Shown here: in pieces, positions 40,550 through 45,275 of the stretch
Layout: each line of letters starts with the position of its first letter
How positions within the stretch are numbered: position 1 is the first letter of the stretch
Source of the DNA: Escherichia coli
Lineage (GTDB): Bacteria > Pseudomonadota > Gammaproteobacteria > Enterobacterales > Enterobacteriaceae
DNA: 64,000 bases
Assembly (NCBI RefSeq): GCF_045037415.1
Contig: NZ_CP173438.1
Direction: 5' to 3' (one strand)
The notes under the pieces: generated by a model
The model's input: only the letters and a program-made list of their open reading frames with translations
Database searches by the model: none
What the model was told of the DNA's origin: nothing
Translations under genes and position numbers: made by a program

Positions 40550-40560
40550 AGTGAATTCAT

Positions 40561-40581
40561 ACTGCCGGGAGCTCCGGCAGT
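40561..40581. terminator. perfect palindrome between convergent yfeR and yfeN; putative bidirectional terminator
   Basis: actgccgggagctccggcagt inverted repeat; no strong T-run. Confidence 0.3.
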
Positions 40582-40587
40582 AATCAA

Positions 40588-41352
40588 TCAGAAATTAAAT
40601 TTGATGGAGTAGATTATCGCATCCTGGTAAAAATCTTCGCCCAGTTTGTCATCCGCATAACGATACTGAATCCCTGTGGTGATGTGTGAAGTTGCATTCC
40701 ACCAAAGTGCGACGGCACCGTTCAGACCTTCTTTGCCGCCATTACCTGCCGCGTAGGTGGCATCACGATCAAACTCGTACTCGTTCCAGTTGGTGAGGGT
40801 GAATTTCTCACTGCCCAGCATAAAGCTGTAACCTGCAACCCAACCGGCGACATAACCGTTATCGCCGGTATAATAGGTTTGGTCTGTATAGCGTTTTGCA
40901 AAGAACGGTTTGAACCACCAACCGCTGCCGGTGAAATTGTAGCCGATCCCGTAAAGGAACATATCGTCATGGAAATTTACACGATTCGCAGAACCGTAGG
41001 TGCCATACGCATGCAAGTAGAGATTAAATCCGGTGTCACCCAGGTAAATACGGTTGGTATTTTTAAATGTATAACGCTGCTCGCTACCCGGTTTATCATG
41101 ACGATCATTATAAAAGTTTTCCCAGTCGAAGAACCCGTACATTTCTCCCCAACTAAAGTTAGCGCCGCCTTCCAGTTCCAGATATCCAAAATCATCTTTG
41201 TGTGATTTGGTCGACGATTTCTCAGTGGTTCTGCTAGTCCAGTCAAGATAATGAATACCTATATCAGCAAAACCGCCTTTAAATTCTGCATGGGATACTG
41301 CTGGTATCGCCAATACAGAAGAGAGTGTCAGAGTAAAAAGATGTTTTTTCAT
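40588..41352 (-). CDS. yfeN: Tsx-like outer-membrane nucleoside channel protein YfeN
   Basis: 254 aa; signal peptide, aromatic-rich beta-barrel-like sequence ending in F. Confidence 0.85.
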   Translation of the reverse strand: MKKHLFTLTLSSVLAIPAVSHAEFKGGFADIGIHYLDWTSRTTEKSSTKSHKDDFGYLELEGGANFSWGEMYGFFDWENFYNDRHDKPGSEQRYTFKNTNRIYLGDTGFNLYLHAYGTYGSANRVNFHDDMFLYGIGYNFTGSGWWFKPFFAKRYTDQTYYTGDNGYVAGWVAGYSFMLGSEKFTLTNWNEYEFDRDATYAAGNGGKEGLNGAVALWWNATSHITTGIQYRYADDKLGEDFYQDAIIYSIKFNF

Positions 41353-41600
41353 AGCATAATTCCCTATGCCGATCGTTATTAGTTGATTGCTTAATAAAAA
41401 GGTTGATTAAAAGCGGCATATTGTTAATGCAAGGGAAAGGAGAGTACCAATACAGTTTTTTCAGCCTATTAATAGTGAAAAAATATAAATATATCGATAT
41501 CGAATAACTATCGGATACATGAAAAAAGTGTATTGGTATGAGGTAGGGCAATCTCGTTATAAAAAGGCGTTAGATTCCCCCCTACAAAAAAAGGATATAT

Positions 41601-42434
41601 ATGTATCAGGCTCAGTTTTCTCATAACCCACTGTATTGCGTAGATATTATCAAGACTTATAAACCTGATTTCACGCCACGAGTGGCCTTTATTTTAGGTT
41701 CCGGGCTGGGCGCGCTGGCCGATCAGATTGAGAACGCGGTCGCAATTTCCTACGAAAAGCTGCCTGGGTTCCCGGTAAGTACCGTACACGGTCATGCGGG
41801 TGAGCTGGTGCTGGGGTATCTCCAGGGGGTGCCAGTGGTGTGCATGAAAGGTCGCGGACATTTCTACGAAGGTCGTGGGATGACCATCATGACGGATGCA
41901 ATCCGTACCTTTAAGTTGCTGGGCTGCGAGTTGCTGTTCTGCACCAATGCGGCTGGCTCACTGCGCCCTGAAGTGGGGGCCGGCAGTCTGGTCGCATTGA
42001 AAGATCACATCAACACCATGCCGGGAACGCCGATGGTGGGTCTTAATGATGAACGTTTTGGTGAGCGCTTCTTCTCGCTGGCGAATGCCTACGATGCGGA
42101 ATACCGCGCACTGTTACAAAAAGTGGCGAAAGAAGAGGGGGTCCCTCTGACGGAGGGCGTGTTCGTCTCGTATCCGGGGCCGAATTTCGAGACTGCGGCG
42201 GAAATTCGCATGATGCAAATTATTGGTGGGGATGTTGTTGGTATGTCTGTGGTGCCTGAGGTTATTTCAGCTCGCCATTGCGAACTTAAAGTCGTTGCGG
42301 TCTCTGCGATTACCAACATGGCGGAAGGTCTGAGTGACGTGAAGCTTTCTCATGCCCAAACGCTGGCAGCAGCGGAACTCTCAAAGCAAAACTTTATTAA
42401 TCTTATTTGCGGCTTTCTGCGCAAAATTGCCTGA
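41601..42434 (+). CDS. xapA: xanthosine phosphorylase (purine nucleoside phosphorylase II)
   Basis: 277 aa PNP family. Confidence 0.9.
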   Translation: MYQAQFSHNPLYCVDIIKTYKPDFTPRVAFILGSGLGALADQIENAVAISYEKLPGFPVSTVHGHAGELVLGYLQGVPVVCMKGRGHFYEGRGMTIMTDAIRTFKLLGCELLFCTNAAGSLRPEVGAGSLVALKDHINTMPGTPMVGLNDERFGERFFSLANAYDAEYRALLQKVAKEEGVPLTEGVFVSYPGPNFETAAEIRMMQIIGGDVVGMSVVPEVISARHCELKVVAVSAITNMAEGLSDVKLSHAQTLAAAELSKQNFINLICGFLRKIA

Positions 42435-42494
42435 GTAAAACAACAATAAACGGCCTTACTGAGTGAGGCCATATGATGCGACAAGGAAACGATT

Positions 42495-43751
42495 ATGAGC
42501 ATCGCTTTGCGCTTAAAGGTAATGTCCTTTTTGCAATATTTTATCTGGGGGAGCTGGCTGGTTACCCTCGGTTCTTACATGATTAATACCCTTCATTTCA
42601 CCGGCGCTAATGTTGGCATGGTTTACAGTTCCAAAGGGATCGCCGCGATTATTATGCCTGGTATAATGGGGATCATCGCAGACAAATGGCTGCGTGCAGA
42701 ACGTGCATACATGCTGTGTCACCTGGTGTGTGCGGGCGTACTTTTTTATGCGGCATCCGTAACTGATCCGGATATGATGTTTTGGGTGATGTTAGTCAAT
42801 GCGATGGCGTTTATGCCGACTATTGCGTTATCGAACAGCGTCTCTTATTCCTGTCTTGCCCAGGCAGGGCTTGACCCGGTGACCGCTTTCCCGCCCATTC
42901 GCGTTTTTGGTACGGTGGGGTTCATTGTCGCCATGTGGGCAGTAAGCTTGCTGCATCTGGAATTGAGTAGTCTGCAACTGTATATCGCGTCCGGTGCGTC
43001 ATTGCTGCTGTCGGCTTATGCGCTGACTTTGCCGAAGATTCCGGTTGCGGAGAAAAAAGCGACTACATCGCTTGCCAGCAAGCTGGGTCTGGATGCCTTC
43101 GTGCTGTTTAAAAATCCACGCATGGCTATCTTTTTCCTCTTCGCCATGATGCTGGGTGCGGTGCTGCAAATTACCAACGTTTTTGGCAACCCGTTCCTGC
43201 ATGATTTCGCCCGTAATCCTGAGTTTGCTGATAGCTTCGTGGTGAAATACCCGTCCATTTTACTGTCAGTTTCACAGATGGCTGAAGTCGGTTTCATTCT
43301 GACGATACCGTTCTTTTTGAAGCGTTTCGGTATTAAAACCGTCATGCTGATGAGTATGGTGGCGTGGACGCTGCGCTTTGGCTTCTTTGCCTATGGCGAT
43401 CCATCACCAACCGGGTTTATTTTGCTGTTGCTGTCGATGATTGTTTACGGTTGTGCATTCGATTTCTTCAATATTTCTGGTTCGGTCTTTGTCGAACAGG
43501 AAGTTGATTCCAGCATTCGTGCCAGCGCCCAGGGCCTTTTTATGACGATGGTAAATGGCGTCGGCGCATGGGTTGGCTCGATTCTGAGCGGTATGGCAGT
43601 GGATTACTTCTCGGTGGATGGCGTAAAAGATTGGCATACCATTTGGCTGATGTTTGCAGGGTATGCTCTTTTCCTCGCAGTGATATTTTTCTTTGGGTTT
43701 AAATATAACCATGACCCTGAAAAGATAACGCATCGTTCAGTTACACATTAA
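42495..43751 (+). CDS. xapB: xanthosine/nucleoside MFS permease
   Basis: 418 aa, 12-TM-type. Confidence 0.9.
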   Translation: MSIALRLKVMSFLQYFIWGSWLVTLGSYMINTLHFTGANVGMVYSSKGIAAIIMPGIMGIIADKWLRAERAYMLCHLVCAGVLFYAASVTDPDMMFWVMLVNAMAFMPTIALSNSVSYSCLAQAGLDPVTAFPPIRVFGTVGFIVAMWAVSLLHLELSSLQLYIASGASLLLSAYALTLPKIPVAEKKATTSLASKLGLDAFVLFKNPRMAIFFLFAMMLGAVLQITNVFGNPFLHDFARNPEFADSFVVKYPSILLSVSQMAEVGFILTIPFFLKRFGIKTVMLMSMVAWTLRFGFFAYGDPSPTGFILLLLSMIVYGCAFDFFNISGSVFVEQEVDSSIRASAQGLFMTMVNGVGAWVGSILSGMAVDYFSVDGVKDWHTIWLMFAGYALFLAVIFFFGFKYNHDPEKITHRSVTH

Positions 43752-43803
43752 AAGGATTCGCAGCTCTGTTCCTTGGGGCTGCTTTTATGATAAAGGTTAA
43801 TTA

Positions 43804-43962
43804 GTGAAAGATATTTTATTTTCTTCTGGCGTTGGTTTTGGCATTGGTGCTTTGTTTACAATCGTGCGATTACCTATTCCTGTTCCAAATGTATTGCCGG
43901 GTATATTATCCATCGTGTTTATGTATGTCGGATATCTGGTGGTGAAATACTTTATGCCATGA
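43804..43962 (+). CDS. putative small two-helix membrane protein (XapX-like) between xapB and xapR
   Basis: 52-codon ORF with GTG start (VKDILFSSGVGFGIGALFTIVRLPIPVPNVLPGILSIVFMYVGYLVVKYFMP), two hydrophobic segments; below ORF-track size cut-off; identified by reading the sequence. Confidence 0.4.
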   Translation: MKDILFSSGVGFGIGALFTIVRLPIPVPNVLPGILSIVFMYVGYLVVKYFMP

Positions 43963-44002: not shown

Positions 44003-44887
44003 ATGGAACGCGTATATAGAACAGATCTTAAGTTGCTCCGTTATTTTCTTGCCGTAGCGGAAGAGTTGCATTTTGGTCGCGCAGCAGCGCGTTTAAATAT
44101 GTCTCAGCCTCCGCTCAGTATTCATATTAAAGAGCTGGAAAATCAACTCGGCACGCAGCTTTTTATTCGCCATTCGCGCAGCGTCGTACTGACACACGCG
44201 GGCAAAATCTTGATGGAAGAATCGCGTCGATTGCTGGTGAATGCAAATAATGTATTGGCTCGGGTTGAACAAATAGGTCGGGGAGAAGCAGGGCGGATTG
44301 AACTCGGGGTTGTGGGAACGGCAATGTGGGGACGGATGCGCCCGGTTATGCGGCGATTCCTTAGAGAAAATCCTAACGTTGAAGTTCTGTTTCGCGAAAA
44401 GATGCCCGCGATGCAAATTGCCTTGCTGGAACGCCGCGAACTTGATGCCGGGATCTGGCGAATGGCGACAGAACCACCGACTGGTTTTACCAGCTTACGG
44501 TTGCATGAATCGGCGTTTCTGGTGGCGATGCCTGAAGAGCATCATCTCTCATCATTTTCCACCGTCCCGCTGGAAGCGCTACGTGACGAGTATTTCGTTA
44601 CAATGCCGCCCGTGTACACTGACTGGGATTTTTTGCAGCGAGTTTGCCAGCAGGTGGGATTTTCACCGGTTGTTATTCGCGAAGTTAATGAACCGCAAAC
44701 GGTACTCGCCATGGTCAGTATGGGTATTGGTATCACATTGATAGCGGACAGCTACGCGCAGATGAACTGGCCCGGTGTCATATTCCGTCCGCTCAAAGAA
44801 CGCATCCCGGCAGACTTATATATTGTTTATGAAACGCAGCAGGTGACGCCCGCGCTGGTTAAACTGCTGGCGGCGTTGGCGCAGTAG
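44003..44887 (+). CDS. xapR: LysR-family activator of xapAB
   Basis: 294 aa from internal ATG (MERVYRTDLKLLRYFLAV...). Confidence 0.9.
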   Translation: MERVYRTDLKLLRYFLAVAEELHFGRAAARLNMSQPPLSIHIKELENQLGTQLFIRHSRSVVLTHAGKILMEESRRLLVNANNVLARVEQIGRGEAGRIELGVVGTAMWGRMRPVMRRFLRENPNVEVLFREKMPAMQIALLERRELDAGIWRMATEPPTGFTSLRLHESAFLVAMPEEHHLSSFSTVPLEALRDEYFVTMPPVYTDWDFLQRVCQQVGFSPVVIREVNEPQTVLAMVSMGIGITLIADSYAQMNWPGVIFRPLKERIPADLYIVYETQQVTPALVKLLAALAQ

Positions 44888-44997: not shown

Positions 44998-45073
44998 TGG
45001 TGGGTCGTGCAGGATTCGAACCTGCGACCAATTGATTAAAAGTCAACTGCTCTACCAACTGAGCTAACGACCC
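44998..45073 (-). tRNA. lysV: tRNA-Lys (anticodon UUU)
   Basis: Reverse complement matches the canonical E. coli tRNA-Lys sequence (GGGTCGTTAGCTCAGTTGGTAGAGCAG...CCA). Confidence 0.95.
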
Positions 45074-45077
45074 GAAG

Positions 45078-45153
45078 TGGTGGGTGATGACGGGATCGAA
45101 CCGCCGACCCCCTCCTTGTAAGGGAGGTGCTCTCCCAGCTGAGCTAATCACCC
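45078..45153 (-). tRNA. tRNA-Val (anticodon UAC)
   Basis: Reverse complement matches canonical tRNA-Val(UAC) (GGGTGATTAGCTCAGCTGGGAGAGCACCTCCCTTACAAGGAGG...). Confidence 0.95.
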
Positions 45154-45199
45154 ACTTCGGTACTTCACATTGTTACAAGAAATCTAGCTGGCGAGAAAG

Positions 45200-45275
45200 T
45201 GGTGGGTGATGACGGGATCGAACCGCCGACCCCCTCCTTGTAAGGGAGGTGCTCTCCCAGCTGAGCTAATCACCC
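45200..45275 (-). tRNA. tRNA-Val (anticodon UAC), second identical copy
   Basis: Identical to the copy at 45078..45153. Confidence 0.95.

Follow-up and report, generated by a model that had tools for sequence, protein, structure and literature searches.

Next to the genes for xanthosine use in Escherichia coli lies yfeN, a gene for an outer membrane protein of the Tsx type, and the question raised by this arrangement is whether YfeN provides the route by which xanthosine crosses the outer membrane. The xapABR xanthosine system itself has reportedly been described by Seeger in 1995 and by Jorgensen and Dandanell in 1999. The window analyzed here, a stretch of 64,000 nucleotides of E. coli DNA, holds the locus (Table 1) in the order yfeH (-), yfeR (+), yfeN (-), a 248-bp spacer, xapA-xapB-xapX-xapR (+), tRNA-Lys/Val and gltX. 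With yfeN on the minus strand and the xapA start at 41601 on the plus strand, the two genes form a divergent pair across the 248-bp spacer. The first-pass annotation had recorded a Tsx-like gene, yfeN, divergent from xapAB, and its coordinates, gene name, family and orientation agree with the open reading frames, Pfam and the RefSeq annotation. It had also regarded the regulation and substrate of yfeN as not established, and neither is published in the searchable literature, in which no functional work and no substrate, regulation, expression, binding or transport data were found for this gene. Searches on b2408, on xapAB Sort-Seq, on xanthosine in combination with Tsx and on the XapR iModulon yielded nothing bearing on yfeN, and an S121P mutation of yfeN, reported from a study of evolution on cellobiose, was without phenotype. 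The XapR targets described in the searchable literature are xapA, xapB and xapR only, with yfeN and xapX unmentioned. That this gene exists and belongs to the Tsx family is already known, while the XapR regulon membership and the role proposed below appear unpublished within that literature.

Table 1. Positions of genes, predicted promoter elements and other features of the yfeN-xap locus in the window.
Feature	Position	Strand	Basis and remarks
Hairpin, 9 bp, GC-rich	40560..40582	none	between convergent yfeR and yfeN; RNA fold -17.9 kcal/mol, z=-4.3
yfeN CDS	40588..41352	-	254 aa, Tsx/OmpK-family outer-membrane beta-barrel, C-terminus ...KFNF; ORF, Pfam, NCBIfam, RefSeq annotation
Signal peptide of YfeN, predicted Sec, codons 1-22	41287..41352	-	MKKHLFTLTLSSVLAIPAVSHA then EF, cleavage after SHA; by eye from sequence
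yfeN -10, predicted, AACAAT	41420..41425	-	21 nt downstream of GTATTGG
yfeN-side XapR-type box (candidate)	41445..41493	-	ATTTATAT 41483-41490, TATTAAT 41468-41474, AAAACTGTATTGGTA 41445-41459
xapA-side XapR-type box (candidate)	41490..41538	+	dyad ATCGATAT 41493-41500 and CTATCGGAT 41508-41516, plus AAAAGTGTATTGGTA 41524-41538
xapA -10, TATAAA	41558..41563	+	ATAA invariant in 8/8 taxa (alignment A3)
xapA, xanthosine phosphorylase	41601..42434	+	ORF, Pfam PNP_UDP_1, RefSeq annotation
xapB, xanthosine:H+ symporter	42495..43751	+	ORF, Pfam Nuc_H_symport E=4e-189, RefSeq annotation
xapX, 52-aa small hydrophobic protein (TIGR03510 / DUF1427)	43804..43962	+	NCBIfam XapX domain E=5.8e-18; RefSeq CDS in strain 4/1-1
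xapR, LysR-type activator of xapAB	44003..44887	+	Pfam HTH_1 + LysR_substrate, RefSeq annotation

With a dN/dS of 0.026 against K-12, yfeN is a real annotated gene rather than a chance open reading frame, and its ATG (41352-41350) follows an AGGGAA Shine-Dalgarno sequence located 7 nt upstream. The protein shares 97% identity with K-12 YfeN (b2408, 'putative outer membrane porin YfeN'), from which it differs at 8 amino acids, and identical copies are named 'outer membrane protein OmpK' or 'nucleoside-specific channel-forming Tsx family protein' in RefSeq. The segment 40400-41700 is 100% identical in many RefSeq E. coli genomes, and the flanks of the yfeN region are present in 5,416 of 5,426 complete E. 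coli genomes. IS1 is inserted in yfeN in some E. coli genomes, resulting in two annotated fragments. At its downstream end, yfeN converges with yfeR (+), leaving 38 bp between the two stop codons; a hairpin with a perfect 9-bp stem (TACTGCCGG/CCGGCAGTA) fills most of this gap and is likely the transcript end for both genes. The stem is not followed by a T-run and was for this reason missed in the terminator scan. On the far side of the spacer, the xapX open reading frame is intact in MG1655 (98%, tblastn), though the MG1655 record has no CDS at this place, and xapX is absent from the xap loci of Enterobacter and Lelliottia, which are also without yfeN. Between xapR and gltX (44998-45275, minus strand), three tRNA genes are found (Lys-UUU, Val-UAC, Val-UAC) where K-12 has four (valU, valX, valY, lysV); an Rfam scan returned tRNAs only.

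The assignment of YfeN to the Tsx/OmpK family relies on several features. The protein matches the Pfam profile PF03502 (Channel_Tsx) with E=4.1e-44 and 151.6 bits (cut-off 27.2), residues 34-254 aligning with positions 2-244 of 244, and it also matches the NCBIfam equivalog PRK11528. Targeting to the outer membrane is indicated by the predicted signal peptide together with the terminal Phe of ...YSIKFNF, an aromatic beta-signal likewise recognized by eye. An AlphaFold2 model generated with 25 homologues (pLDDT 89.2, pTM 0.83) displays 12 strands, with a low-confidence N-terminal helix and a barrel that starts at residue 24; as a model, not a solved structure, it conforms to the 12-stranded, antiparallel, monomer-sized barrel of the family. 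The top PDB match of this model in Foldseek is Tsx bound to thymidine (1tlw_B, E=2.9e-8, TM 0.67/0.68), and the barrels of other kinds that rank below it have far lower TM scores. The profile match, the modeled fold, the signal peptide and the terminal Phe together show YfeN to be, by prediction, a monomeric 12-stranded outer-membrane channel. Orthology to Tsx itself was considered and rejected: the two proteins share 14% identity in the structural alignment, a phmmer search of YfeN against the PDB gave no match at E<=1, and tsx (b0411) occupies a different locus in K-12, between yajD and yajI. Alignment of the YfeN profile with Tsx by hhalign extended over 82 N-terminal columns only, the N-terminal third, with 72% probability. 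The missing phmmer match, the low identity and the restricted profile alignment place YfeN in an OmpK-type branch and argue against a tsx orthologue.

How yfeN might be controlled can be read from the spacer that it shares with xapA, for which a generic sigma-70 and terminator scan gave nothing useful. The spacer contains an inverted repeat that matches at 18 of 19 positions, TACCAATACAGTTTTTTCA (41445-41463) versus TGAAAAAAGTGTATTGGTA (41520-41538), and its two arms account for the only two exact AAAANTGTATTGGTA matches in the window. The GTATTGG on the yfeN side is the complement of 41447-41453, and the core, CCAATAC/GTATTGG, does not vary among the eight taxa aligned. A common layout was found in the 13 xapA promoters compared, consisting of ATCGATAT, ~8-9 nt, (C/A/G)TAT(T/C)GAT, ~11 nt, AAAnTGTATTGG, 21 nt and TATAAA, and in all 13 of them TATAAA, TATAAG or TATAAC is located 21 nt downstream of GTATTGG. 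Read on the yfeN strand, 15 yfeN promoters present the same layout. In every xap-type promoter compared, a -10-like hexamer of the form nAnnnT (AACAAT, AATAAT, TAAAAT, TATTAT or TACCAT) lies exactly 21 nt after GTATTGG or ATATTGG, with no conservation of the sequence between the motif and the -10. A gapless 49-nt matrix, for which only xapA promoters from 12 other taxa or strains served as training set, was then applied to the 64-kb window (127,904 positions): the xapA site scored 38.3 bits, the yfeN site (41445-41493, minus strand) was second with 26.6 bits, and the next hit reached 3.5 bits. Within the locus, the yfeN-side site is also the second-best match of the matrix in four other taxa, and it is the best match in the Rahnella locus. 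In Budviciaceae, Phytobacter and Entomohabitans, the spacing between dyad and GTATTGG shifts by 1-2 nt and the matrix therefore scores poorly; a spacing-tolerant pattern was used in its place for distant taxa. This pattern has 12 matches in 3.27 Mb of collected loci, all of them upstream of yfeN and on the yfeN strand.

The xapA-side elements can be compared with what has been reported for this promoter. In PMC7205307, one XapR site is described as overlapping the xapAB -35 and another as lying further upstream, with loss of the upstream site crippling induction; the positions of the xapA-side elements fit that account of two sites, and the supplement of the paper provides no operator sequences. 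From their position and from this one secondary description, we infer that the conserved spacer elements are XapR sites. An operator-type box, to which XapR would bind judging by its position, is also placed at yfeN's own promoter, as expected for a member of the XapR regulon. Two other regulators were set aside. YfeR was discarded as a regulator of yfeN, yfeR being convergent and absent from both C. sedlakii (L007) and the variant E. coli L085, each of which carries yfeN. For HusR (YnfL), a gSELEX peak was reported in the K-12 spacer, with RT-qPCR results given for xapA, not yfeN. The K-12 site, between the -35 and -10 of xapA (41541-41556 in the window), changes from CGGGACAACCTCGCTA to TAGGGCAATCTCGTTA here, with 4 of 16 positions differing; control of yfeN through this site was put aside on account of the xapA-only RT-qPCR and the poor conservation in this strain.

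On balance, although with only a slight lean, we favor a reading in which YfeN is a Tsx/OmpK nucleoside pore that would belong to the XapR regulon and serve as the accessory xanthosine channel of a yfeN-xap block. According to this proposal, yfeN would be transcribed leftwards from its own promoter, predicted as the mirror image of the xapA promoter with an LTTR-type dyad, AAAAnTGTATTGG overlapping the -35, 21 nt and a -10. The mirrored promoters suggest that xanthosine-bound XapR could switch on YfeN as outer-membrane pore, XapB as inner-membrane symporter and XapA as phosphorylase together. YfeN would let xanthosine, and perhaps other substrates of XapA and XapB, diffuse across the outer membrane at low external concentration, being accessory to the pathway and not obligatory. 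XapR binding, xanthosine induction of yfeN and xanthosine passage through YfeN are what we infer from promoter architecture, gene content and family.

The inheritance of the locus is in line with such a unit. Of the 5,426 complete E. coli genomes, 4,089 contain yfeN and 4,102 contain xapB-xapR; yfeR-yfeN-xapA is contiguous in 4,059, and ~1,350 others match the yfeR part only. An example of the latter arrangement is O157:H7 (L084, 9641-10177), in which yfeR is followed by an FlxA-like gene and tRNA-Lys, and the yfeN-xap block is absent in its entirety. The layout found in E. coli is common to Salmonella, Citrobacter, Pseudocitrobacter, Entomohabitans and Kluyvera, and yfeN is again paired with xap, at different chromosomal sites, in Phytobacter and Budviciaceae, in the latter beside modF/gal genes. 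In total, yfeN co-occurs with xapR in E. coli and nine other genera; exceptions are Budvicia and Rahnella, without xapR within 10 kb of yfeN, and conversely Enterobacter and Lelliottia, which possess xapABR without yfeN. Repeated co-transfer of xapR and xapA has already been reported (PMC2395238), and the pairing with yfeN extends that observation. The gene yfeN belongs with xapA-xapB-xapX-xapR to a self-contained, horizontally mobile xanthosine-utilization block.

Several variants of this region deserve mention in their own right. About one quarter of complete E. coli genomes are without yfeN-xapA-xapB-xapX-xapR; the interval from yfeR to tRNA-Lys holds an FlxA-like gene of 113 aa in its place, and in the O157:H7 genome an internal stop additionally interrupts yfeR. 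Kluyvera combines the FlxA-like gene with yfeN and xap, and Enterobacter combines it with xapABR only. A third layout is present in eight E. coli genomes (L085, 6954-13550; L005), where an ompK-like gene, 77% identical at the nucleotide level, is divergent from two inserted genes, one for an additional nucleoside permease and one for a nucleoside 2-deoxyribosyltransferase, that precede xapA-xapB and a LysR gene. In the variant E. coli L085, yfeR is missing.

A wider view of the family determines how closely YfeN can be tied to xanthosine. Gene context says that the OmpK-type subfamily is linked to nucleoside use: a Halomonas homologue (45% identical) is the first gene of a Tsx-like-nupC-type-deoC-deoA-deoB-deoD cluster divergent from deoR, a Shewanella homologue lies between nupC and deoCABD, and in Rahnella the next gene downstream of yfeN, in the same orientation, is a Nuc_H_symport gene whose product has 66% identity to XapB. 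In Limnobaculum and Pragia, the next gene upstream of yfeN, likewise in the same orientation, is a phosphopentomutase-like deoB that is divergent from xapA-xapB-xapX-xapR; a long spacer separates the deoB-like gene from yfeN, which has its own box there. A neighbor-joining tree, calculated without bootstrap, splits the homologues into a xap-type clade (Enterobacteriaceae, Budviciaceae, Rahnella) and a second clade, clade M, which comprises Morganellaceae, Yersinia and Wohlfahrtiimonas and whose members are 54-63% identical to YfeN. The homologues of Morganellaceae and Yersinia (L013-L082; e.g. Proteus mirabilis, L077, 4208-4966) occupy a fixed place, clpP-tig-bolA-yajG-ampG-X-cyoABCDE, without xap genes, and the Wohlfahrtiimonas homologue has a context that differs from ampG-cyoA. 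A Plesiomonas homologue (L096) also follows ampG, and the Halomonas nucleoside cluster that starts with the homologue abuts cyoABC as well, a hint that the link to cyo is old. Residues fixed in the xap-type clade in comparison to clade M are K153/R154 versus L/H, H34 versus N, E91 versus N and M131 versus N; we treat these apparent clade-specific differences as a lead only.

These homologues give room to a different reading, in which YfeN would be a nucleoside channel of general or other specificity, in effect a second Tsx, that neither answers to XapR nor selects xanthosine and owes its place beside xapA to shared island history. It would account for the homologues in general nucleoside (nupC-deoCABD) clusters and in housekeeping contexts, for the use of xapABR without yfeN in Enterobacter and Lelliottia, and for Proteus mirabilis, which carries a clade-M homologue although it has neither xapA nor xapR and is unable to use xanthosine (PMC13289894). 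It does not account for the distribution of the xapA-like promoter box, which is confined to the xap-type clade (the motif was found in none of the upstream spacers of the ampG-cyoA homologues of Morganellaceae and Yersinia), nor for the near-perfect match between the presence and absence of yfeN and xapABR in E. coli, and we judge it unlikely. What clade M does indicate, being without a xap link and including a Proteus unable to use xanthosine, is that the family is not intrinsically xanthosine-specific. The first-pass annotation had suggested that YfeN could be the dedicated entry route for xanthosine. Block inheritance, recurrent pairing and the mirrored promoter lend this idea indirect support, but 'dedicated' or 'required' is too strong given the xapABR loci of Enterobacter and Lelliottia that lack yfeN, the ~60%-identical homologues with neither xap genes nor the promoter, and Proteus mirabilis. 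An accessory, co-regulated channel fits better with the Enterobacter and Lelliottia loci and with a wider family that is not xanthosine-specific than a dedicated, required route.

The proposed co-regulation further depends on which gene the inverted GTATTGG arm (41445-41463) serves. It could act only as a far-upstream XapR site for xapA, for instance through DNA looping, with yfeN expressed independently or hardly at all; two XapR sites are indeed described at the xapAB promoter, with induction crippled when the upstream one is removed (PMC7205307), and a search for data on the transcription start of yfeN returned none. Three natural separations of the two genes speak against this. First, the xapA promoters of Enterobacter and Lelliottia, where yfeN does not adjoin, already hold the dyad and GTATTGG and have no inverted copy. 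Second, in the variant E. coli L085, xapA follows the deoxyribosyltransferase gene and has a single box, and the mirrored pair is located in the spacer between the ompK-like gene and the permease gene. Third, in Limnobaculum, Budvicia and Rahnella, the promoter unit stands alone in front of yfeN. In addition, the -10-like hexamer directed towards yfeN keeps its distance of 21 nt in every taxon despite the unconserved intervening sequence. The separations show that the predicted mirror unit belongs to yfeN and is not a distal site of xapA, and a role confined to xapA is accordingly quite improbable.

The divergence of the locus from K-12 (L001) completes the picture. Synonymous divergence peaks at yfeN (dS 0.55) and declines through xapA (0.36), xapB (0.24) and xapR (0.14) to the flanks (0.06-0.09), and the yfeN-xapA spacer is only 80% identical to that of K-12. 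The low dN/dS of yfeN and the dS peak at this gene point to strong purifying selection and to a history of the block distinct from that of its surroundings. The deep synonymous divergence covers 40590-43800, is centered on yfeN and the spacer, and indicates either two ancient classes of alleles or the import of a segment. That YfeN is chiefly a phage or colicin surface receptor, as Tsx and Vibrio OmpK are, or a largely silent relic, with phage pressure behind the polymorphism, would suit the presence/absence pattern, the unusually deep divergence centered on yfeN and the IS1 insertions, yet it is hardly probable at all, as a dN/dS of 0.026 with 8 amino-acid differences speaks against both diversifying selection and decay, yfeN was dispensable for every phage of the BASEL collection (PMC8594841), and the whole xap block, not yfeN alone, is lost.

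The favored reading, an accessory pore under XapR, can be taken further, at the price of lower confidence. In this extended form, which we put forward tentatively and consider possible at best, YfeN would be the missing pore of the xanthosine pathway, induced by XapR and specialized for xanthosine, which is largely anionic at neutral pH and hence ill-suited to cation-selective general porins; K153/R154 would be part of this adaptation, and the block would move between species as a unit, giving rise to the 75/25 polymorphism and the deep allelic split. In E. coli K-12, YfeN still counts among the outer-membrane proteins to which no function is assigned. A XapR-controlled role would have several consequences. 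The xapABR circuit, a model genetic switch, would gain a fourth regulated component that affects positive-feedback uptake at low xanthosine, the XapR regulon would grow from one promoter to two, and the OmpK-type branch of the Tsx family would receive a defined physiological role. The yfeN-xap block would represent a nutrient-utilization unit with its own outer-membrane pore that is gained and lost whole. The practical value of all this is modest.

Several known systems can be set beside this proposal. Tsx of E. coli (PDB 1TLY/1TLW) resembles YfeN as a member of PF03502 with a 12-stranded barrel of similar size. The nucleoside-binding sites of the Tsx pore are formed by aromatic pairs with flanking ionizable residues. 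The two differ in sequence (14% identity) and in genomic setting, as tsx resides at another locus and is under CytR/CRP control according to the literature, whereas yfeN lies in the xap block with a candidate XapR-type box. OmpK-type proteins, after which RefSeq names YfeN, are alike in length and Pfam family. In Vibrio, OmpK is the receptor for phage KVP40. For YfeN, by contrast, no phage that uses it is known, none in the BASEL collection having needed it (PMC8594841). Within the xapABR system of E. coli, yfeN occupies the same locus and the same promoter architecture is present on both sides of the spacer. The closest functional parallel is offered by LamB/mal, ScrY/scr, BglH/bgl, NanC/nan and ChiP/chb, in which substrate-specific outer-membrane channels are encoded and co-induced with catabolic genes. 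As proposed for YfeN, systems of the LamB/ScrY type place a pore, an inner-membrane transporter and the first enzyme under one substrate-sensing regulator, and the pore is dispensable at high substrate; YfeN differs from LamB and ScrY in its 12-stranded Tsx-type barrel, compared to 18 strands, and in that its co-induction is a prediction.
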